Source of the DNA: Candidatus Eiseniibacteriota bacterium
Lineage (GTDB): Bacteria; Eisenbacteria; RBG-16-71-46; JABDJR01
Direction of reading: 5' to 3'
Assembly: GCA_963762255.1 (NCBI GenBank)
Contig: CAVXKA010000001.1
Coordinates: 32,001 to 96,000, forward strand
Length of the DNA stretch: 64,000 bases
The position numbers were made by a program, and so were the translations under genes. Below, one piece after another: positions 31,982-45,238 of this stretch. The notes below the pieces were generated by a model, which saw only the letters and a program-made list of their open reading frames with translations, ran no database searches and was not told the origin of the DNA. Each line of letters begins with the position of its first letter. The first letter of the stretch is position 1.

Positions 31982-32488
31982 CTACGTCGACCGATAGTTG
32001 CCGAATTTCAGTTCCACTTCGAGGTCCATTCCTTTGAGTAGGTGAATTACTTCCTGAAGGTCGTCTCGCTTGGGGCCTGTCACCCGAACCTGGTCTTCCA
32101 TGATCGCGGCCTGGACCCGTTTGAGCTTGGCATCCTTGATGGCCTTCACGATCTCGCGGGCAAGCTCGGAGGAGAGTCCCTGCACCAGCTCCAGCTTCTG
32201 CCGGACCGTTCCCCCGGCGGCGTCCTCGATCTTCCCCGGTTTGACGTTCTTCAGAGGAACGCTGCGTCGAATCAGTTTCCCCTGCAAGACGTCCCATATC
32301 GCGCTGACCTTGTAGCTGTCGGGCCCGTGGATATCGATGGTGGCGGCTTTGCGATCGAATTCGATCGAGAACTTCACCGCCTTGAAATCGTAGCGGGTGG
32401 TGAGCTCCTTGAGCGTCTGGTTGACCGCGTTGTCGATCTCCTGCAGGTCGACCCCGGTGGTGACGTCGAACGATTCTTTGGATGCCAT
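31982..32488 (-). CDS. yajQ: YajQ family nucleotide/c-di-GMP-binding protein
   Basis: SFDV...VDLQEIDNAVNQ, RYDFK, VQAAI..DQVRVTGPKRDDLQ, FGNYR. Confidence 0.95.
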   Translation of the reverse strand: MASKESFDVTTGVDLQEIDNAVNQTLKELTTRYDFKAVKFSIEFDRKAATIDIHGPDSYKVSAIWDVLQGKLIRRSVPLKNVKPGKIEDAAGGTVRQKLELVQGLSSELAREIVKAIKDAKLKRVQAAIMEDQVRVTGPKRDDLQEVIHLLKGMDLEVELKFGNYRST

Positions 32489-32552
32489 GGCAGGTAGACT
32501 ACGCCAAGTGCGGCCTTGTTTCCACCGGGGGCCGCGGGGTAGGCTACGGGCC

Positions 32553-34067
32553 ATGAAACCCCCGTTTCGCAAGGTCCTTGTCGCCAATCGCGGCGAGATC
32601 GCGGTCCGGGTGATCCGTGCCCTTCACGAGCAGGGCGTCGGCGCGGTGGCGGTGTTCAGTGAAGCAGACCGGAACTCAGTCCACGTGCGTTTCGCGGACG
32701 AGGCGTACTGCATCGGGCCGCCCCCGTCCAGCGAGTCCTATCTGAACCAGGCGGTCATCCTCGAGACCGCGCTCCGGTGCGGCGCCGAGGCCATCCATCC
32801 GGGCTACGGCTTCCTCTCCGAAAACGCAGGGTTCTCGCGGGCGTGCGCCGAGGCGGGGTTGGTTTTCATCGGGCCCTCGGCAGAGTCCATCGCCGCGATG
32901 GGCGACAAGCTCGAAGCGCGCGCCGTGGGGCGCGCGGCCGGCATCCCCATCGTCCCGGGAAGCCCGGGGCCGGTGGCGGACCTGAGCCAGGCGTTGCAGA
33001 GCGCGGAGACGATCGGCTACCCGATCATGCTCAAGGCCTCCGCGGGGGGCGGTGGCAAGGGCATGCGGGTGGTGAGGAGCGCCAAGGATCTGGCCACCGC
33101 GTTCGCTCTCACTCGAGGAGAGGCGGAGAGCGCGTTCGGCAACGGGAAGCTCTACATCGAGAAGTTCATCGAGAAGCCTCGCCACATCGAGATCCAGGTC
33201 TTCGGCGACGGCAAAGGGAACGTGGTGCACCTGGGCGAGCGCGAGTGCTCGCTTCAGCGTCGTCATCAGAAGGTCATCGAGGAAGCGCCCTCGGTGGTGA
33301 TCGACGCCGCGAAGCGCCGCGCCATGGGCGAGGCGGCGGTGAAGCTGGCGAAGGCGGTCAACTACCGCAACGCGGGCACGGTCGAGTTCATCTACGGCGC
33401 GGACGGTGGCTTTTACTTCCTGGAGATGAATACGCGGCTCCAGGTCGAGCATCCGGTCACCGAGTTGGTCTACGGCGTCGATCTCGCCCGCGAGCAAATC
33501 CGGGTGGCGGCAGGCCTGCCGCTCTCGTTCAAGCAGGACGAACTCGTGCCCAAGGGATGGGCGATCGAGTGCCGGATCTACGCCGAGGACCCCTACAACA
33601 ACTTCTTCCCTTCGCTGGGGCGCATCACCCGGCTGCGTCTGGCCTCCGGTCCGGGGGTGCGTAACGACTTCGGGATCCTCCAGGGATACGAAGTCTCCCG
33701 CTTCTACGATCCGATGCTGGGCAAGCTCGTCGTGCACGGGGCCGACCGCGAGGAGGCGCGCCGCCGGATGCTGCGCGCGCTGCGAGAGACGGTGGTCGAA
33801 GGGGTGCGCACGAACATCCCCTTTCATCGCTGGATGCTGGCCCGCGAGGAGTTCATCCGCGGCGATTTCGATACCAGCTTCATCGAGAGCATGTTCACTG
33901 GGGTCGAGCGGTCGACGGATCCTGCGGCCGAGCGCGCCGCCGTCATCGCCGCGGTGATCGCCACCCATGTCGAGGAGCAGCGGGTTCGCCCGCCGGCGGC
34001 GGGTGACAGCGGGATGGACCCGTGGCGGCTCATGGGTCGTCCCGGCGCCACGAACCGAGGCCGCTGA
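32553..34067 (+). CDS. accC: Acetyl/propionyl-CoA carboxylase biotin carboxylase subunit
   Basis: ANRGEIA, HPGYGFLSEN, GGGGKGMR, RECSLQRRHQK, EMNTRLQVEHPVTE, YDPMLGKL. Confidence 0.93.
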   Translation: MKPPFRKVLVANRGEIAVRVIRALHEQGVGAVAVFSEADRNSVHVRFADEAYCIGPPPSSESYLNQAVILETALRCGAEAIHPGYGFLSENAGFSRACAEAGLVFIGPSAESIAAMGDKLEARAVGRAAGIPIVPGSPGPVADLSQALQSAETIGYPIMLKASAGGGGKGMRVVRSAKDLATAFALTRGEAESAFGNGKLYIEKFIEKPRHIEIQVFGDGKGNVVHLGERECSLQRRHQKVIEEAPSVVIDAAKRRAMGEAAVKLAKAVNYRNAGTVEFIYGADGGFYFLEMNTRLQVEHPVTELVYGVDLAREQIRVAAGLPLSFKQDELVPKGWAIECRIYAEDPYNNFFPSLGRITRLRLASGPGVRNDFGILQGYEVSRFYDPMLGKLVVHGADREEARRRMLRALRETVVEGVRTNIPFHRWMLAREEFIRGDFDTSFIESMFTGVERSTDPAAERAAVIAAVIATHVEEQRVRPPAAGDSGMDPWRLMGRPGATNRGR

Positions 34068-34587
34068 TGTCGACACGCTACATCGTCCACCTGGGTGACC
34101 GGCAGCAGACGGTATCCATCACCAAGGAAGGGAACGGCTACCGCGTGGAGATCGACGGCGAGGCGATCGCGGTCGACAGTCTCTCCGTGCCGGGGAGCCC
34201 CACGCGCTCGCTCCTCATCGAAGGGCGTTCCTTCGAGGCGGCCACCATGCCGTCGCGAGACGGTCTCGACGTATACGTTTCCGGCGACGTGTTTCACGTC
34301 CGGGTCACGGACGAATTGTGGGCGCGCGCCGAGAGCGCCGCGCACGGCGCCATCTCCGGCGAGGAGGTGGCCTCCCCCATGCCCGGCTCCGTGGTGCGCA
34401 TCTCGGTGGAGATGGGCCAGGTGGTGGAGGCGGGCCAGACCGTGGCGGTGGTCGAAGCCATGAAGATGCAGAACGATCTTGCCGCGGTGCGCGGAGGCAA
34501 GGTCGAGCAGATCCGTGTGAAGGCCGGCGATATCGTGGAGCAGGGAACGGTGCTGGTGGTGCTCGGGGCCGCAGCGGCGGAGGCGTG

Positions 34588-34588
<1 letters not shown>
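34067..34588 (+). CDS. Biotin carboxyl carrier protein
   Basis: SPMPGSVV and EAMKM biotinylation motif. Confidence 0.93.
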
Positions 34589-36342
<1,754 letters not shown>

Positions 36343-36571: not shown

Positions 36572-36805
36572 GGCCCGAGCCGGTTTCGAGTGGATAGGAA
36601 TTGTGCATTGCCCCCCTGGACTCGCGGGGTTGCGCCTCGCGGTCAGATCGTTGAGATGCGCGCGAGCAGTCAGTCCGTGGTCAAGAACGAGGGGGCGCCA
36701 GCGTACGTCTCCCTCCCCACGTGTTCGGCGCGGTTTCCTCAAACGAACACGGGGGCCGACCCATCTCCGGGCCAGCCCCGTGTGCAATCCGTGACCGCCC
36801 GTCGG

Positions 36806-37789
36806 CTAGTAGAGCGTCTTGATCCGACCCCAAGTGGTCGTCTCCACGGAGACCGGTACTTCGCCGAACTTCTGGATGCGGTTGTTGTCGTGTCCGCGAC
36901 GTAGATGTTGCCCGCCGCGTCCGTCGCCACTCCGCGGGGACGACCGAACTGCCCGTTGCCGCTGCCGAATGACCCCCACTGGGTCAGGTACGCGCCCGTG
37001 CCGTGAACTTCTGGATGCGGTTGTTGCCCAAGTCCGCGACATAGACGTCACCCGCGGCGTCCGTCGCCACTCCGACGGGACTGGTTGAACTGCCCGTTGC
37101 CGCTGCCCGGCGAGCCCCACTGGGTGAGGTAGGCGCCCGTGCTCGTGAACTTCTGGATGCGCGAGTTGCCCGCGTCCGCGACGTAGACGTCGCCGGCTGC
37201 GTCCGTCGCCACTCCGTAAGGGTAGTTGAACTGCCCGTTGCCGCTGCCGAGCGAACCCCACTGGGTAAGGTAGCCGCCCGTACTCGTGAACTTCTGGATG
37301 CGGTTGTTGCCGGGATCCGCGACATAGACGTTGCCCGCGGCGTCCGTCGCCACTCCGCAGGGATAGATGAACTGCCCGCTGCCGGTGCCGTATGACCCCC
37401 ACTGGGTGAGGTAGCCGCCGGTACTCGTGAACTTCTGGATGCGGTTGTTGTCCTTGTCCGCAACGTAGACGTTGCCCGCGGCGTCCGTCGCCACCCCGTA
37501 GGGGTACGTTGAACTGCCCGTTGCCGGTGCCGAACGAGCCCCACTGGGTGAGGTAGGCGCCGGTGCTCGTGAACTTCTGGATGCGGTGGTTGGAGGTGTC
37601 CGCGACGTAGACGTTGCCCGCGGCGTCCGTCGCCACTCCGCAGGGATAGCTAAACTGCCCGTTGCCGCTGCCGGACGCCCCCCACTGGGTGAGGTAGGTC
37701 GGAGGTTGTGCTCCAACTGCCGCCGGCAGGATGGATGCGAAACCGAGAAGCGCGAGCGTGATCCCAAAGCGTTGGAGCCAGGAAGTCAT
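36806..37789 (-). CDS. Secreted six-bladed NHL-repeat beta-propeller protein with C-terminal TWG tag; several frameshifts
   Basis: Signal peptide MTSWLQRFGITLALLGFASILPAAVGA; six YLTQWG..GSGNGQF..P.GVATDAAGNVYVAD..N.RIQKF repeats; ends VPVSVETTTWGRIKTLY*. Confidence 0.85.
   Translation of the reverse strand: MTSWLQRFGITLALLGFASILPAAVGAQPPTYLTQWGASGSGNGQFSYPCGVATDAAGNVYVADTSNHRIQKFTSTGAYLTQWGSFGTGNGQFNVPLRGGDGRRGQRLRCGQGQQPHPEVHEYRRLPHPVGVIRHRQRAVHLSLRSGDGRRGQRLCRGSRQQPHPEVHEYGRLPYPVGFARQRQRAVQLPLRSGDGRSRRRLRRGRGQLAHPEVHEHGRLPHPVGLAGQRQRAVQPVPSEWRRTPRVTSMSRTWATTASRSSRHGRVPDPVGVIRQRQRAVRSSPRSGDGRGGQHLRRGHDNNRIQKFGEVPVSVETTTWGRIKTLY
36866..37700. repeat. Six tandem ~141-bp coding repeats (NHL blades)
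   Basis: GAACTTCTGGATGCG at 36866, 37005, 37147, 37288, 37429, 37571 (spacings 139, 142, 141, 141, 142). Confidence 0.9.
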
Positions 37790-37858
37790 GGGGGTATCTC
37801 CTTGATGGTTGCTTGTTCCAAGATCCTGGACGGGTCAGGGACGGGCACCCCGTGCCAA

Positions 37859-38601
37859 TTAGTAGAGCGTCTTGATCCGGCCCCAAGTGGAATCTTGCGT
37901 CGGTACCGGCTGCTGGGGAAAAGCGTCCTGGAAGGTCGTTCCGACACCCAGGTCATCGATGTCGAACTTCCACGCCACCCCGGTCCCGGTGTTGCTCTCC
38001 CGCAAGGCGAAGGCCGAGACATCGACGGGCGTGGCGGCGGGCTCATACAACGACATGTAGCTGCTCGACTCGTTGACTGGGTCCACCCACACTGAAACCG
38101 TCTGGGCCGCCGCGTCATACTTCGTGACGATCGTGTACCACGAGTTGTAGCTGCGGAGACCCTGAGTGTTGCTGGGTGTGTCCCGGCCACCGAAACCCCA
38201 AAGTAGAATGTGGTAGTCGAGGAGCCCGCCCCCATGACCCAGATCTTGGCTCGGGCGTTGGACGTGCCGGTGTCCTTCATGTGGGCGAAGTAGTTTCTCC
38301 TCGGCACGCCGCTGACCGGCTGCAAGATTCTGACCCTGAAGCTGGAGTAGGTCACGCCGGTCAGTCCTTGGGCAGGGAACGCAAGTTCGTCGGCGCGGAC
38401 TTGGTTCATGTCACCCTCAGCATAGTTGCCGATGACCTGAATATCCGTGCCGATGCCGCTGGACGTGGCCCACCCCCCATTCGGGACCAAGTTGCCGTTG
38501 AGGTAGCTGAACGGTTCACTCACGAAGTTGGTCGCGAGGGCGGGCGACGCAAGGATCGCCGCACTGCTGAGCGCTAGGAGCGCGTGAACAGTCTTATGCA
38601 T
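37859..38601 (-). CDS. Secreted beta-rich hypothetical protein with C-terminal TWG tag; frameshift at ~38150
   Basis: RBS GAGGAG, signal peptide MHKTVHALLALSSAAILASPALA; continues in ORF 37859..38092 ending QPVPTQDSTWGRIKTLY*. Confidence 0.75.
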
Positions 38602-38764
38602 CGTAGGGTCTCCTCTTGGTGCTTGGATCGGCCAGCGGACTCTGAAGCGGCGGACGACGCCTGACTCAGAAACGAAAGCGTGATCCCCAAGCGTCGTAGC
38701 CGGGAAGTCATGCGGTATCTCCTGGTTTGTCCGGCCTCGGGAAGGAAACATGAAACCGGTCAAG

Positions 38765-38835
38765 AACGATCAACACAGTAGCTTATATAAAGACTAACCA
38801 TGATATACATTATTCATAAGAGACTAGATCTGTAC
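38765..38835. promoter_or_regulatory. AT-rich divergent promoter region
   Basis: CTTATATAAAGACTAACCATGATATACATTATTCATAAG stands out in otherwise GC-rich DNA between divergent secreted-protein genes. Confidence 0.4.
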
Positions 38836-39098
38836 GCTTTGTCGGTCGCATCCAGACCACAGCGTAACCAGCACTATCACTGCACGTTACCCAAACCGGA
38901 GCGTCCAGCGAGAGGCGTCCGTTCCCCTTGACCCCATCGGGCTTCGGCTCCCCAATGTGGTCTGGAAGCTCTTCGGGGGCATCCGAACCCTGACGTAATA
39001 CGACTAGAATAGTTGCAGTCAACGTCCTCCACGGGGCAGCTCAGCGAGCGGAACCCCGTCTCTCGTGCAATCACCCAATGCGATCGGAGGGTCCGGCG

Positions 39099-39728
39099 AT
39101 GAGTTCTCTGCTACCGGCTTCCACCATCCAGCGCCTCGTTCGGCATCTCGGCGTAATGGCCCTCGTTCTTCTCGGCACGATTGCCCTGCCCGTTGCGTCT
39201 GGAGCCCAGCCATGTCCCCTCCCGCCGCAGTACACCAACAGCGCCAGCGTGATGGTAGGTGACGTTCGATTCATCCTCGCCACGGAGACCTACCTGTACG
39301 CCGTCGGCGATCCGGTCAGCATCATCATGACCGTGGAGAACACCGGCTCCGGTTCAGTGACCATTCCGAATCCCTCGATGATCTCGCCGCTTCAGGCGCT
39401 GTGGGTAGTTGCCGATACGTGCGCTACCTTTTACGTGGACGACTGCCCCTCCGTCTCGCCGTTCGCTTGGCCTCAGAGCCACTACTACTTCGGCGTGTCG
39501 ATCGTTCTCGCTCCCGGCGAATGCCGCACCTACACGCAGACCTGGAACGGTGTGCCATGGCAGGGCGGGACTACACAGCCGGGTCCTTATGCCGTTCTTG
39601 GCGGCATGAGCAGGGGGTCGACACTATTCATGCCCCAAGGCGGTGTCCGGCTTCCGATCCTGGTCGGCATACAGGGTGTTCCTACGGACCAGCGTACCTG
39701 GGGAGCGATCAAAGCGCTGTACCGGTAG
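39099..39728 (+). CDS. Secreted Ig-like (BsuPI-like) protein with C-terminal TWG tag
   Basis: RBS GGAGG; signal peptide ...LVLLGTIALPVASGA; YAVGDPVSIIMTVENTG...LAPGEC.TYTQTW...PGPY; ends GVPTDQRTWGAIKALYR*. Confidence 0.75.
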   Translation: MSSLLPASTIQRLVRHLGVMALVLLGTIALPVASGAQPCPLPPQYTNSASVMVGDVRFILATETYLYAVGDPVSIIMTVENTGSGSVTIPNPSMISPLQALWVVADTCATFYVDDCPSVSPFAWPQSHYYFGVSIVLAPGECRTYTQTWNGVPWQGGTTQPGPYAVLGGMSRGSTLFMPQGGVRLPILVGIQGVPTDQRTWGAIKALYR

Positions 39729-39744
39729 CCAGTCTCGGCTGCAG

Positions 39745-39975
39745 TCAGTCCGATCCACCCAGGGTCCAGACCTCGCGTCCGCTCTTGAGATGCTTCTTAT
39801 GGATACTCACGTCGTCGGCCCCCTCCGCCTCGGCAATCGAGCGGAGTTCGGCGATGTCTTCGGGACTGCCGTCGCAGAATCCTATCGGACGCGGATTATT
39901 GGGCAGTTGGAGCTGGACTTTGAACTCGCCACGGTCCCATCGAGTCTGAGTCGCATTGTTGTAGGGGTAGATCAT
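39745..39975 (-). CDS. Small 76-aa hypothetical protein
   Basis: Protein-like ORF MIYPYNNATQTRWDRG...IGFCDGS...KSGREVWTL filling the gap between two genes. Confidence 0.6.
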   Translation of the reverse strand: MIYPYNNATQTRWDRGEFKVQLQLPNNPRPIGFCDGSPEDIAELRSIAEAEGADDVSIHKKHLKSGREVWTLGGSD

Positions 39976-40007
39976 GATGTTGCAGAGTCTAAGCGACCCG
40001 CCCCGGC

Positions 40008-41188
40008 CTAGCTGGTGAATTCCACGCGCACTCCGCGCTTCGCGTGCCGGGCCAGCGTGGCGGCGTCCCAGTTCGTTAGGCGGATGCAGCCGTGGGACGC
40101 CGCGTAACCGATCGTCTGCGGGGTGGCCGTGCCGTGGATCCCGTAGTTCTCCTTCGAGAGCTGCATCCAGACCACGCCCACCGGTGAGTTGGGGCCGGCC
40201 GGCAAATTGGCTTCCGGCTCGTCGTCCGACACGTCGGCGAACAGTTTCGGCTGATAGTGGAACGTGGGATTCCGCGCGATGCCGATGATCCGGAGGTTAC
40301 CCTCGGGTGAGGGGTCGTACTTGGACCCCAGCGTCGACGGAAAGTGGAAGAGAATGCTTCCATCGCTATCGATGGCATGGGCATAGAAGCCCCGGCGCGA
40401 CACGATGATCCGGTCGATGACGCGGGTGGAATCGACCGCTCCCTCCGCCGTCCAACCCGGGTCGACATTGGGGACGAGCAGATCCTCCCCGCCGTCAGGC
40501 TCCCGGCGTGGATGCCGGAATTGAGTGAGGTCAGGAACTCCGGTGTCGTGTGGAATTTCTCGCCAATGGCCTCGAGAAGCGACTCGTAACACAGGCAGGA
40601 CTGCCTGGCCTTGTCGTACATGTCCTTGCCGAGCGGCACGAACTTCTGATCCGCGTCGGCGGCCGTCACCCGGTAGGGGACGACCGGCTCCCATTGCGCT
40701 GCCAACCGTTCGAGAAGCCGACTCGTCTCCGGATCGAGATCGCCCGTCGGCTTCAAGCCGTACGCGTCCTGGAACCAGTAGAGCGCCTTGGCCGTGTTCT
40801 TCCCCCCCGGCCGTCTATGACCCCCGGCGAAAAATGAAGCCGATCCAGCCACACCTGGAGCGTCAACGCCGGCAGACTGTCAGACGGCGCGCCGGTCCGC
40901 GGTGACGAGTCGACCGGTATCGCCCGGGCACGTCCCGCAGCCCGCTTCGTCAATTCGTACCGCGCCGCCGCCCGCCACGAGGTATCCCCGCGCGCCGCCT
41001 CGAGGGCAGCCGCATCGTATACATCCACATCGATCATCGGAGCGGACGCATCGATCGGCAATGTGTCGCCGGGAGCCGGCGTCAGAATTCGATGCCGCAT
41101 TCGAGCGGGTGTCCCGCCGTTCGCATCCGACGGCTCCGAGGACCACCAGCCCGAGCAAGAATATTGCATTCCGTCCCATGCTACGCAT
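40008..41188 (-). CDS. L,D-transpeptidase (YkuD) lipoprotein with peptidoglycan-binding domain; several frameshifts
   Basis: Lipobox LGAVGC; LQVWLDRLHFSPGVIDG..GKNTAKAL..FQ...GLKPTG; PAGPNSPVGVVW, YGIHGT, SHGCIRLTNWD. Confidence 0.85.
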
Positions 41189-41428
41189 ATAAGCTCCTCC
41201 ATCAAGTCGACAGTTCAAGAGTGTACTCTGGTCCGATCTGCGCGGTTACGATCGGCACAGGTGGCCGGACCGGCGGTTTTCGAGCGGGCGGGAATTGCGC
41301 GCTGTGCCTGATTGTGGCAATAAACTTGATTCCTACCCGGCAAATCTGATAATTTCTCACGCTTGGCGGCCTGCCAGAGCCTCGGCCAGGCCGAAGTGAG
41401 ACTCCATCTAAACCATGAGGAGACCCCC

Positions 41429-42105
41429 ATGCATCGTAGATTACCAATGCTCTTGTCCACGCTCACTGCGCTGGCGCTCTGCCTCGGTTTCGCGCCCTCC
41501 CCCGCCAGCGCAAGCGGTGAAGAGATCGCCAACTTCTTCATTACACCCGGCGGGGAAATCACCCGGCTCGAGCCGATGTCGACCACTGCGGAGACCGACA
41601 TCTTCCTCAACGAGGATACCGACTTCGCGCTCGGTTTCGTCGCGCAGCAGGGCGAGGAATGGGCCGAGGACATCCACGGGACTGCCTCCGGTCCACTCGT
41701 GGGATTCGGAGTGGGATTCGTCGGTAACGCGCCGGACTCGTTCGACGTCACCGTCACTCTGTACGAGTGGTCCGACGACGCCGTGGCGCCGGGCACCGTC
41801 ATCTTGGGTCCCTGGGTCTTCCGGGTCGCCTCGACCACCATCGGCATCGGAGTCAGCTTCGGGGAGGCCCGGTGGTCGGCCCCGATCTCTGGATGGGTGT
41901 CTCCTTCAGCGACCCGAGTGTTGGCATGTGGCTCCACGACACGCCCCAGATCGGCACGAGCGACGACCTCTACTGGAACATCACGACGGGAGCGCAGGAG
42001 AGCTTCGTGGGCGGCCCCGTTGCGAACTTCGTCACGCGGGTGACTGTGGATCTTCCAACCCCGGTCGAGTCGACGACATGGGGCAAGGTCAAGAGCCAAT
42101 ACTGA
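41429..42105 (+). CDS. Secreted hypothetical protein with C-terminal TWG tag; frameshift at ~41890
   Basis: RBS GAGGAG, signal peptide MHRRLPMLLSTLTALALCLGFAPSPASA; continues in ORF 41767..42105 ending LPTPVESTTWGKVKSQY*. Confidence 0.75.
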
Positions 42106-42148
42106 GGTCCTGGTCGTGTGACCCGGCGAAGTCGAGTCCGGCAAACCG

Positions 42149-42187
42149 AGGGGAGGAACGCGAGGGCGTTCCTCCCCTTTGTCTTGT
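42149..42187 (+). terminator. Intrinsic terminator
   Basis: AGGGGAGGAACGC-gagg-GCGTTCCTCCCCT followed by TTGTCTT. Confidence 0.8.
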
Positions 42188-42208
42188 CTGTGTAGGGCGG
42201 GCGGGCCG

Positions 42209-45034
42209 CTACGAATCCAGCACCTCGCGCACCTTGTGCGTCAGGTCTGCGACCGAATACGGCTTGCCGATGAAGTTCACGCCTTCGTCGAGTACTCCAT
42301 AGTGCACGATGGCGTCATCGGTGTAGCCGGACGTGAAAAGGACCTTCATCCCGGGATGACTGTGGTGGAGTCGTTCCGCCAGTTCCCGCCCGCCCATATC
42401 GGGCATTACCACGTCGGTGAGCAGAAGCTGGACAGATCCCTCGTGGCTCTCCAACAACTTCAACGCCCCGTTGCCGTTCGCCGCATCGAGGACGGTATAG
42501 CCGTGCTCTTCGAGTACATCCCGGACCAAAGCGCGAATGTGCTTCCTCGTCCTCGACGACGAGAATCGTCTCAGTACCTCTTTCAGAAGCTACCGCAGGA
42601 GCCGGCTCGGACTCTCGTACGGTTTCCATAGTTCGTGGGAAGTAGATCTTGATCGTGGTGCCCTTGCCGACCTCGCTGTAGACCCAGATACTGCCGTCGC
42701 ACTGTTTCACGATGCCGTATACCGTGGCCAAGCCGAGTCCCGTTCCCTTTCCCGACACTTTCGTCGTGAAGAACGGCTCGAAGACTCTCCGTTGGGTCGC
42801 GTCGTCCATCCCGTACCCGGTGTCGCTGACCGCGAGCATCACGTGAGGGCCCGGCGTGCACCGTGGTGTGACCTCGCATACAACTCGTCCACCATGACGT
42901 TCTCCGTCCTAATGGTCAGCGTGCCGCCGTCCGGCATGGCGTCACGGCTGTTGCTGGCCAGGTTCAGGAGAATCTGCTCGACTTGCGTGGGATCGATGCG
43001 GACGTTCCCCAGGTCCGTGGCCAGTTGCACGCTGACGTGAACATCCTCGCCAATGAGACGCCGAAGCACCGGCTCAACCCCCACTACGGCGCTGTTGAGG
43101 TTCACGACAACGGGCTGGAGAATCTGGCGCCGGCTGAAGGCCAGAAGCTGTCGGGTCAGGTCGGCTGCCCGCTTGCCGGCACTTCGAATGTTGTTCAACT
43201 GCTCGCGCAGGCGATCTGTCCTCACGCAGCCCCTGTGCCGCCAGTTCGGCCGTACCGTTGATGACCGTAAGCAGGTTGTTGAAATCGTGGGCGATTCCGC
43301 CGGCAAGCCTGCCGACGGTTTCCATCTTCTCTGCTTGCCGCAGGCGATCCTGCAGCTGCACGCGGTCGGTGACGTCATAGTAGGTCCCCAGAAGACCGAC
43401 GATCGCCCCGCCCGCCGCCCGGAGCGGCACCTTGCTTGTCAGCAGGTGAATGCACTCGCCCGAAGGCGTCGTCTGCGTCTCTTCGAAGAGAAGCTTCGCT
43501 TCCCCGCTCTCGATCACAGCACGGTCATCGGCCTGGTAGAGGTCGGCTTGCTCCCGCCAACACATGGCATGGTCGTCCTTACCAATGACGTCCTCCGGTT
43601 TCTCGAACCCGGCGTCCCGGGCAAACGCCACGTTGCAGCCCCGGTACATCAGGTCTCTGTCCTTCCAGAAGACTCGCACCGGTATGGAGTCGAGGATTCC
43701 ATGAAGCAGCTCGCGCGATTCCCGCAGCGCCTCCTCCGACCGCTTCCCCTCGGTGATGTCATGAACGATGGAATGCAGAAACGCCCTTCCCCCGATATCA
43801 ATCCTGCTGTTCCATACCTCCACGTCTCTGACGGAGGCCAGTCGGTGGCGGAACTCGAGGAGGCTGCGTTCCTTGCCCCCGACCGTCTTCAGCGCCGCTT
43901 CGACCCCTTCAGGTGGGGTGATGTCGATATCCTGAATTCGTCTTCCCCGCAGTTCTTCCACCGACCATCCATAGAAATTCGCCGCCGCTTCATTGGCTTC
44001 GACAATCTCGCCGGTGTCCGGATCAGTGATGAACTTGACGGCCATGTGGTTCTGGAAGAGGGAGCGGAACTTCTCCTCGCCCGCGCGCAACGTTTCGTTG
44101 GCCTCGACCAGATGTCTCGTCTTGGCTCACCTGCTTGCGAAGCAGCACGATGGCGCCGAACGCCAACACGAGGAACCCACTGATGCCGCCCATGATCCAG
44201 GCGAGGTACCGTGGCAGGACGACCTTTTGGGGCCTTTCCGATCCAGAGCGCCAATTCGGCGTAGAACACGGAGCCGGCCTCGGACTTCATGATTCGCAAT
44301 TCGTGGTCGATGGCCTCGAGCAGATCCTGGTTCGTCCCGCGCGCGGTCGCGAAATGCAGCGATACCGCGTTGAACACGATCCCCGTCCGAGACAGTCCGT
44401 ACTTCTGATAGTGGTAGTCTCCAAACAACTGGTTTGTGACAACCGCATCGACCATGCCATTCGCGGCAAGGGTGAAGACTTCCTCGTAGGAGTATGCCTC
44501 GACCACAGACACGCGATAGCCGAATCCCCGTATCATCTCTTCCAATACTGTTTGCTGAATCGAATCCTTGAGCAAGCCAAGCCGCAAACCGTTCAGATCG
44601 GACAGCTTGGTCATGGGCTTCTTGCGCACCGCGTATACCTGCGACCAGCTATCGACAACCGTCTCTTCATTGAAGTCGAATCTTCTAGTTCGCTCGACCG
44701 AGAAGGCGACATCCGGCATCAAGTCGATGCGGCCCTCTTCGAGAGCGTCCAGGCACTCGGACCATTCACAAGGTACGTACACCAGGTTCCACTGTTCCCG
44801 GCGGGCAATGTCTTCCAAGATGCCGACAAAAATGCCCGAGGGTCGGCCCGCCTCGCTGGTGAAGACCTTGGGCTCGTTCTCGTAGAACCCGACGCGTACC
44901 GTGCGGTCCCGAGCGCGGTCGTGCACTTGAACTTGGGCACTGCATGGAGAGACAAAGACGATTGGGGGACCTATGAGTACTATTGCGACGGCTGCGATCA
45001 TCGAGCGGAGCGAGAGAGTCCCGTTGGCAATCAT
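42209..45034 (-). CDS. Hybrid sensor histidine kinase (extracytoplasmic SBP_bac_3 sensor, 2 PAS, HisKA, HATPase, receiver); about 5 frameshifts
   Basis: [11 protein letters not shown]...[10 protein letters not shown]; [17 protein letters not shown]; [15 protein letters not shown]; [10 protein letters not shown]; [16 protein letters not shown]; [13 protein letters not shown]...KPYS. Confidence 0.88.
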
Positions 45035-45238
45035 GAATACCTCGCGATCGATCGTCTCTTGGGCAACCAACCCGTAGCTTACACCGACCCGGCCGGTTCT
45101 ACGATCCCAGCAGTCCTATCCACTGTCGGTCCATTGTCACCCCCCGATGGCCGGCCCCTCGGCTATCATGTGGGCGCCTGCCGGGCCCTGATTGACCGAT
45201 AGCGAGTGTCCACTTCGGGAGTTTCCACAGGAGGGGTG

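Follow-up and report, generated by a model that had tools for sequence, protein, structure and literature searches.

To our knowledge, the catalogued prokaryotic C-terminal sorting signals fall into two designs: tripartite signals that include a membrane helix, and folded domains. The type IX secretion system (T9SS) uses a folded domain: its type A C-terminal domain (CTD; TIGR04183 / PF18962, FlgD_ig-like) is an address of ~70-80 residues carried by large exported proteins (median 792 residues). Other proteins are held through modular tags, among them dockerins, folded calcium-binding domains of 60-70 residues that link many proteins to one cohesin-type partner and can be multivalent, and the choline-binding repeats and GW modules of Gram-positive bacteria, which measure 20-80 residues, are needed in several copies and are rich in aromatic and basic residues. 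The short signals LPXTG/sortase, PEP-CTERM/exosortase, GlyGly-CTERM/rhombosortase and MYXO-CTERM/myxosortase place an end motif on many unrelated signal-peptide proteins, and a preprint defines such signals as a motif followed by a transmembrane helix and an arginine cluster (bioRxiv 10.1101/2023.06.07.544157). Here we analyse a nine-residue tag, [ST]-W-G-x-[ILV]-K-x-x-[YF] (the TWG tag), that ends four exported proteins encoded in a 64,000-nucleotide stretch of a Candidatus Eiseniibacteriota genome (contig CAVXKA010000001.1, positions 32,001 to 96,000; hereafter the window), and that recurs throughout the proteome and the phylum of this bacterium.

The window was searched in all six frames over its 64 kb with the motif [ST]WG.[ILVM][KR]..[YFW], using the reversed motif as control. 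Exactly four matches were found, each with a stop codon 0-1 residue further on, and the reversed motif gave none. These are the four tails listed in the initial annotation, at the positions given there, with the stop directly after the motif or, in gene 3, after one additional Arg (Table 1). A plausible Sec-type signal peptide stands at the start of all four genes, and the statement that the motif is confined to these secreted proteins also holds, as the window has no further six-frame match. No Pfam or NCBIfam model matches gene 4. Gene 2 has a paralogue elsewhere in the genome (C2:352302-353042) with a DNA identity of only 62%.

Table 1. Tagged genes, their tails and other genes of the window discussed in the text (window coordinates)
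Feature	Position	Strand	Basis or detail
Gene 1, NHL-repeat beta-propeller with signal peptide and TWG tail	36806..37789	-	Open reading frame and three-frame reading; Pfam NHL 37.9 bits
Gene 1 tail, EVPVSVETT-TWGRIKTLY-stop	36806..36862	-	Motif 36809-36835
Gene 2, small exported protein, family not known	37859..38601	-	Open reading frame and three-frame reading
Gene 2 tail, QPVPTQDS-TWGRIKTLY-stop	37859..37912	-	Motif 37862-37888
Gene 3, intact 216-residue exported protein, weakly BsuPI/Ig-like	39078..39728	+	Pfam BsuPI E=0.019, under cut-off; ESM Atlas leads
Gene 3 tail, GVPTDQR-TWGAIKALY-R-stop	39675..39728	+	Motif 39696-39722, plus R to 39725
Gene 4, small exported protein, family not known	41429..42105	+	Open reading frame and three-frame reading
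Gene 4 tail, LPTPVEST-TWGKVKSQY-stop	42052..42105	+	Motif 42076-42102
L,D-transpeptidase gene, flanked by genes 3 and 4	40008-41218		Broken reading frame
PAS/histidine-kinase-receiver gene, a downstream sensor kinase	42209-45070		Broken reading frame
Biotin carboxylase, biotin carboxyl carrier-like and methylmalonyl-CoA mutase-like genes	32397-36342		Intact; assigned from translations only

Extending the search to the whole source genome (G000; 4.14 Mb in 3 contigs, 66-67% G+C) gave 55 matches, compared to 2 for the reversed motif. Fifty-three of them are at most 9 residues away from a stop codon, one of which (SWGRVRPSW, in a 77-residue open reading frame) looks like chance; the remaining two comprise one at a mature N-terminus and one that is chance-like. 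The consensus of 51 tails is P-V-P-V-[EQ]-x-[TS]-[TS]-W-G-[RK..]-[IVL]-K-[TSA]-[LRQM]-[YF], with W and G present in 51/51, K in 50/51, and R or K at the variable position after W-G in 27/51. The Pro/Val linker described for the window proteins is a real feature of the genome-wide set, with P in 22/50, V in 30/50, P in 32/51 and V in 28/51 tails at positions -7 to -4. What follows the motif is short, 0-9 residues in all 52 tails, often one R: the residue after Y/F is R in 12/41, and no more than one R or K comes after the motif.

The carriers of this tag are small (median 245 residues by our own gene calls), and 49 of 51 have a single copy of the motif. When their tails were removed and the 47 carriers longer than 120 residues compared by BLAST, they fell into 27 groups, the largest with 11 members. 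By one signal-peptide heuristic applied uniformly to all genes, 36/43 carriers pass compared to 799/2652 other genes (Fisher p = 8e-13). The initial annotation, which proposed a genome-wide motif search and a comparison with signal peptides, had taken the tail for a tag on otherwise unrelated exported proteins; the near-stop matches, the 27 groups and the export test all agree, and extend the tag from the window to the proteome. Pfam domains are present in 10 of 38 carriers (CARDB, beta-helix, NHL, CBM20, X25, lamin-tail and cupredoxin), the other 28 having none. The tail itself is matched by no model of Pfam or NCBIfam, even at E values up to 10 for the window proteins. At least one carrier is lipobox-like. 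Within three genes of the 46 tagged genes that were called in G000, the only recurrent neighbours are CTD proteins and two-component genes. No candidate machinery gene adjoins the tag, either inside the window or at any of the 51 tagged loci of G000, in line with the initial annotation, which expected any dedicated machinery to be encoded elsewhere.

The tag is also used across the phylum. A DNA pattern back-translated from T-W-G-x-[ILV]-K-x-x-[YF] was run on 206 genomes, all from the phylum of the window, in which there is only one class. The pattern is present in 200 of the 206, with 1-74 matches each, against 0-1 per genome for the reversed control. A stricter pattern, TWGxIKxLYR-stop, searched in one genome per GTDB species, returned at least 126 stretches. 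Among the matches listed, 80 loci have a title, of which 22 name Eisenbacteria, 7 Latescibacterota, 5 Krumholzibacteri-, 2 Gemmatimonadota and one each Zixibacteria, Limnocylindria and Gammaproteobacteria, with 41 naming no taxon; none of the 39 taxon-named loci is titled Bacteroidota. The statement in the initial annotation that similar tails occur in Eisenbacteria and Krumholzibacteria is thus confirmed by record titles. Five genomes with other titles hold 1-54 tails each, and all 30 unbiased matches inspected in them are terminal. Two genomes titled Gemmatimonadota and Limnocylindria (G209, L085, and G210, L127) have 54 and 33 TWG tails, and 65 to >150 T9SS CTDs; this abundance of both suggests that the record titles misplace them and do not give their true lineage.

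Protein databases give the same picture. A profile built from 40 G000 tails as 45-residue segments was searched against 5.8 billion proteins. Of the best 120 matches, 119 carry the motif, 117 of them within 7 residues of the C-terminus. A start resembling a signal peptide is seen in 101, the median length is 214 residues, and not one has an informative protein name. A weak 45-residue profile searched against 1.84 billion cluster representatives (clusters at 50% identity) brought 379 to E <= 0.001. Presence/absence profiling within the phylum was tried and proved uninformative, since nearly all genomes retain the tag; the one near-complete genome with 0 exact matches (G056, described below) uses a W-S variant. 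The tagged protein most often retained in tag-poor genomes is the carrier with a lamin-tail domain, which accounts for 4 of the 8 tails in five genomes of family f9. In G000 (C3:700700-720700, L053) the lamin-tail carrier adjoins multihaem cytochrome and aminotransferase genes.

Some carriers have domains whose host proteins use different C-terminal anchors. The choice-of-anchor X domain (NF041940) was found in two G000 carriers at 43.9 and 44.6 bits (cut-off 25), and choice-of-anchor V (NF041895) in two carriers of the tag-poor family f9 at 107.9 and 65.2 bits (cut-off 42); these are 4 of the 42 proteins scanned, and the domains are the cargo and not the tag. A weak resemblance to the PEP-CTERM proteins ScyF and PepA, or to a MYXO-CTERM protein, was seen in other carriers. 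Judging from these domains and resemblances, the TWG tag appears to sit where anchors sit in homologous proteins.

Despite this shared position, the TWG tag lacks the features that define each of the catalogued sorting signals tested. With the tripartite signals it has in common a near-C-terminal motif (53/55) on signal-peptide proteins (36/43), but no transmembrane segment, hydrophobic helix, basic cluster or Arg cluster follows the motif, in contrast to the definition in the preprint cited above (bioRxiv 10.1101/2023.06.07.544157). It also differs in occurring at N-termini and in tandem, and it implies no intramembrane protease. The T9SS CTD is likewise a C-terminal address on exported proteins and always co-occurs with the tag, but at ~17 residues the tag is far too short to be such a domain, and the two are never combined in one G000 protein. 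Much like dockerins, it is a modular terminal tag that may link many proteins to one partner, yet it is a linear motif of nine residues with no known cohesin-like partner. The aromatic and basic content, the tandem arrays and a possible non-covalent surface retention are shared with choline-binding repeats and GW modules, but TWG is usually single and its carriers belong to diderm bacteria. The statement of the initial annotation that the tag, with neither membrane helix nor basic tail, fits none of the known tags it named is thus supported. The beta-signal of outer-membrane proteins was considered and rejected: the aromatic residue is the last one in only 10/52 tails, and the carriers have NHL, beta-helix, CARDB, lamin-tail, CBM20, cupredoxin or unknown soluble domains. 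A full-text literature search with motif strings, phylum names and sorting-signal terms found no description of the tail.

The constant company of T9SS raises the possibility that the tail belongs to that system, either as a minimal alternative secretion signal or as a surface-retention peptide used after CTD removal. Type A CTDs are found in every tag-bearing genome examined (206/206 in the phylum and 5/5 with other titles), and G000 has 82-90 matches to them. Several findings nevertheless count against this. The motif precedes the CTD in 0 of 100 CTD regions of G000, none of its 46 called tagged genes has a CTD, and no CTD model matches the 42 scanned carriers. In other lineages 30/30 matches, and in the protein database 117/120, end within 7 residues of the C-terminus. 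Numbers do not follow each other: genomes of family f9 have 13-97 CTD candidates and 0-5 tags, whereas those of f12, similar in genome size, have 7-28 tags. In G000, 7 tagged genes lie within 2 kb of CTD genes compared to 4.8 expected, which is no enrichment. Additionally, no Bacteroidota title appears in the taxon-named loci described above, and a motif at the N-terminus of a membrane-anchored protein, as described next, is unsuited to a secretion signal. On balance we consider a role in T9SS unlikely.

The initial annotation placed the motif at the extreme C-terminus, which is true of most carriers and not of all, as it also stands at the N-terminus of mature proteins, in tandem arrays and between the copies of a duplicated domain. 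One G000 protein (C1:1218194-1218859, L251) consists of a signal peptide, P-T-x-x-TWGGVKRLY, a domain of ~90 residues and C-terminal hydrophobic helices, with the motif starting 4-6 residues past the predicted signal-peptide cleavage site. In 6/6 orthologues, otherwise 28-57% identical, this N-terminal motif is the best-conserved block. A structure model of the protein (6-row alignment) has a mean predicted local distance difference test score (pLDDT) of 59.6, with the motif region at 31-41 and undocked on its own domain. The gene is always followed by that of an S11 DD-peptidase without its own anchor (6/6 genomes of family f1), and the next genes in G000 (C1:1212000-1223000) encode a Memo/PqqD-like protein, an S9/S33-type hydrolase and a B12-binding radical SAM enzyme. 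Co-folding the DD-peptidase with the adjoining N-terminal-motif protein scored 0.00 and was counted neither way.

The database representatives add further arrangements. In the best 150 of the 379, 143 tags are plainly C-terminal, and the exceptions include proteins with two to four tandem tails and lipoproteins of the form [domain-TWG][domain-TWG]. One lipoprotein of this library has a motif ~18 residues after the lipobox Cys and a second at its C-terminus. A lipoprotein family recognized by ...SPENVLxNLxxAY... (P0164, P0263, P0149, P0163, P0202, P0214, P0239) has 2-4 TWG motifs, in tandem or after each duplicated domain, and tandem relatives of this family are encoded at C1:935165-937121 of G000. 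The motif is thus not tied to one position along the protein: it is found at either end, internally and in arrays, as a short linear docking motif would be. Such use argues that it is neither a C-terminally threaded or cleaved signal nor a PDZ-type C-terminal ligand. Among the roles offered in the initial annotation (export, surface attachment or scaffold docking), the N-terminal, tandem and internal copies favor docking, and a processed export or anchoring signal is less favored.

These placements bear on two further explanations. The tail could be a removable pro-peptide or a degron for a tail-specific (PDZ) protease, as might be expected from its position near the C-terminus in most carriers and its aromatic residue close to the end. 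The 0-9 variable residues after the motif, the copies at N-termini and within tandem arrays, the retention of the tag on stable structural domains and the concerted change of the motif in one lineage (see below) speak against such a role, which we regard as highly improbable. The tail could instead lie in the plane of the membrane, much like the C-terminal amphipathic helix of low-molecular-weight penicillin-binding proteins. Its terminal place, its Trp, Tyr and Lys residues and its flexible linker would suit such an anchor, as would the N-terminal version that always stands beside an anchor-less S11 DD-peptidase. The initial annotation had described the tag as probably amphipathic, but this was not upheld: the nine-residue motif has a mean helical hydrophobic moment of 0.33, not above that of shuffled sequences (z = -0.1), and a mean hydrophobicity of ~0. 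With a length of only nine residues, its presence on proteins already anchored by lipid or transmembrane segments, and a lineage-wide G-to-S switch for which lipid binding would have no need, a membrane anchor is very unlikely.

The switch itself was found in one genome of the phylum (G056, 92% complete), which has no exact W-G match. It has nine C-terminal tails instead, all of the form [ST]-W-S-[SAT]-[ILV]-K. Eight of the nine proteins were compared by BLAST; all eight have signal peptides, and they form seven unrelated groups. Homologues of one of these carriers in eight inspected sister genomes of the same family end in 13 distinct tails at 13 loci, all with W-G. A change at the same two positions in unrelated proteins is difficult to account for unless one reader, shared by them all, changed its specificity, and the concerted switch across nine tails therefore points to one co-evolving partner. 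A structure model for one G056 family (10-row alignment) had a mean pLDDT of 42 and was unusable.

This partner need not be a protein. The tail might be a one-unit wall-binding repeat for an envelope polymer such as an anionic polysaccharide, lipopolysaccharide or peptidoglycan. The motif is aromatic and basic (W in 51/51, K in 50/51, R or K at the variable position in 27/51), it forms arrays of up to four like wall-binding repeats, no receptor gene was found near tagged genes, and a switch from W-G-[RK] to W-S-S could track polymer chemistry. A single unit of nine residues is, however, very small for glycan binding, and 49 of 51 G000 carriers have just one. The near-invariant T/S-W-G and K across phyla better suit a shaped protein pocket. 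We therefore view a polymer partner as quite unlikely.

A covalent link to the wall is suggested by an L,D-transpeptidase gene that tagged genes 3 and 4 flank (Table 1). Braun's lipoprotein (Lpp), an envelope protein joined to peptidoglycan by such an enzyme, also has a conserved Lys near its C-terminus and ends in K-Y-R-K, an end that the K-x-x-Y-R of the tail loosely recalls. The conserved Lys of the tag could be joined to peptidoglycan in the same way. YkuD was, however, not found (E<=1e-5) in 21/125 genomes that are >=90% complete, and these include tag-rich ones (G059, G060, G065, G020, G026, G011), so that many tag-rich genomes lack a detectable L,D-transpeptidase and an Lpp-like wall linkage is therefore unlikely. 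In G000, a tagged gene is close to only one of the five YkuD matches, which would happen by chance in roughly 1 of 5 cases, and no transpeptidase gene adjoins the contig 2 paralogue of gene 3, although the two copies are 95% identical. The Lys of the tag, moreover, is never last and stands at least 3 residues from the end. Overall, we rate this linkage as extremely improbable.

The paralogue of gene 3 is part of a larger copy. The duplicated unit comprises gene 3 and a small gene that follows (window 39078-39975 and G000 C2:1149272-1150402), the latter encoding a 76-95-residue protein that starts ...IYPYNNATQTRWDRGEF. Since the gene 3 copies are 95% identical at the DNA level and free of gaps, this appears to be a recent segmental duplication.

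Our favored explanation for these observations, to which we give about an even chance, is that the motif [ST]-W-G-x-[ILV]-K-x-x-[YF], which mostly follows a P-V-P-V-type linker, docks non-covalently to one lineage-specific partner in the cell envelope, probably a protein. The carrier would be exported by Sec and would display the motif on the flexible end of a small envelope protein, where a partner most likely accessible from the periplasm could bind it. Binding may retain the carrier at, or route it to, a particular site of the envelope, so that the motif would fill the position taken by PEP-CTERM, MYXO-CTERM or the T9SS CTD in homologues from other bacteria. No membrane helix would be needed, and probably no sortase-like cleavage. 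We infer the non-covalent docking, the single partner and its periplasm-accessible location from the comparisons above; the location in particular is suggested by carriers with a helix or lipid tether of their own (the N-terminal-motif protein and the lipobox-like carrier), whose partner would therefore have to be reachable from the periplasmic side. The new evidence, beyond that of the initial annotation, consists of the choice-of-anchor carriers, the W-S-S switch and the N-terminal, tandem and inter-domain motifs.

Several points weigh against non-covalent docking to a single protein. No receptor was found, and the neighbours of the 46 tagged G000 genes recur only as far as chance and shared CTDs explain. 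Nothing recurrent stands beside the sole tagged genes of tag-poor f9 genomes either, which adjoin genes for an ABC transporter, a kinase/regulator, a cytochrome, a thioredoxin-like protein, an epimerase, LexA and CTD proteins. The structure models are uninformative on a bound shape, with a pLDDT of 27-41 in the motif region. The signal-peptide test is a crude, home-made heuristic with a background pass rate of 30%, and the phylum tallies take in one unpublished genome (G081). Cleavage of the tail is possible, and the change from W-G to W-S-S could in principle follow a changed non-protein ligand instead.

The tagged region of the window is also unusual in its reading frames. The four genes stand as tagged proteins, but three of them are frameshifted in the assembly, which the initial annotation had missed: the frame of gene 1 shifts four times, and genes 2 (near 38181) and 4 change frame once each. 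The L,D-transpeptidase gene and the PAS/histidine-kinase-receiver gene are broken too. Frame changes are unusually dense over window positions 36800-45100, where G+C is 0.61-0.63 compared to 0.65-0.72 elsewhere. The biotin- and methylmalonyl-CoA-related genes upstream are intact, so the nearby housekeeping genes are not frameshifted. Contigs of related strains from four public runs show one-base length differences at 38181, 40486, 40801 and 41084; one such contig has an extra base after 38181 in gene 2, and the other three differences fall in the transpeptidase gene, that at 40801 being seen in three runs. The NHL repeats of gene 1 stay well conserved across its frame changes. Because the related-strain contigs differ by single bases at such sites, the breaks are most likely long-read consensus errors or strain differences and not gene decay, a conclusion that draws on contigs which did not cover gene 4 or most of gene 1. 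Contigs of soil and sediment runs match parts of the window at 90-99%, with run shares of at most 0.10, from which no habitat was inferred.

The nine-residue tag marks 1-2% of proteins across whole uncultured phyla, and a sizeable part of their envelope biology goes unannotated, as most carriers are called 'hypothetical'. A simple model of the tail would mark hundreds to thousands of proteins as envelope-targeted. We tentatively propose, as a possibility that we rate below an even chance, that several uncultured phyla (Eisenbacteria, Latescibacterota, Krumholzibacteriota and relatives) sort proteins to the envelope on a proteome-wide scale through a nine-residue linear motif and a putative receptor, with the motif placed at either end and in multivalent arrays. 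If true, bacteria would have a counterpart of eukaryotic targeting by short linear motifs, mechanistically unlike systems of the sortase, exosortase or T9SS type, and lineages that changed W-G to W-S-S would offer a natural specificity switch for tracing the receptor. Together with the tandem and N-terminal variants, this switch makes the question of the receptor directly testable.

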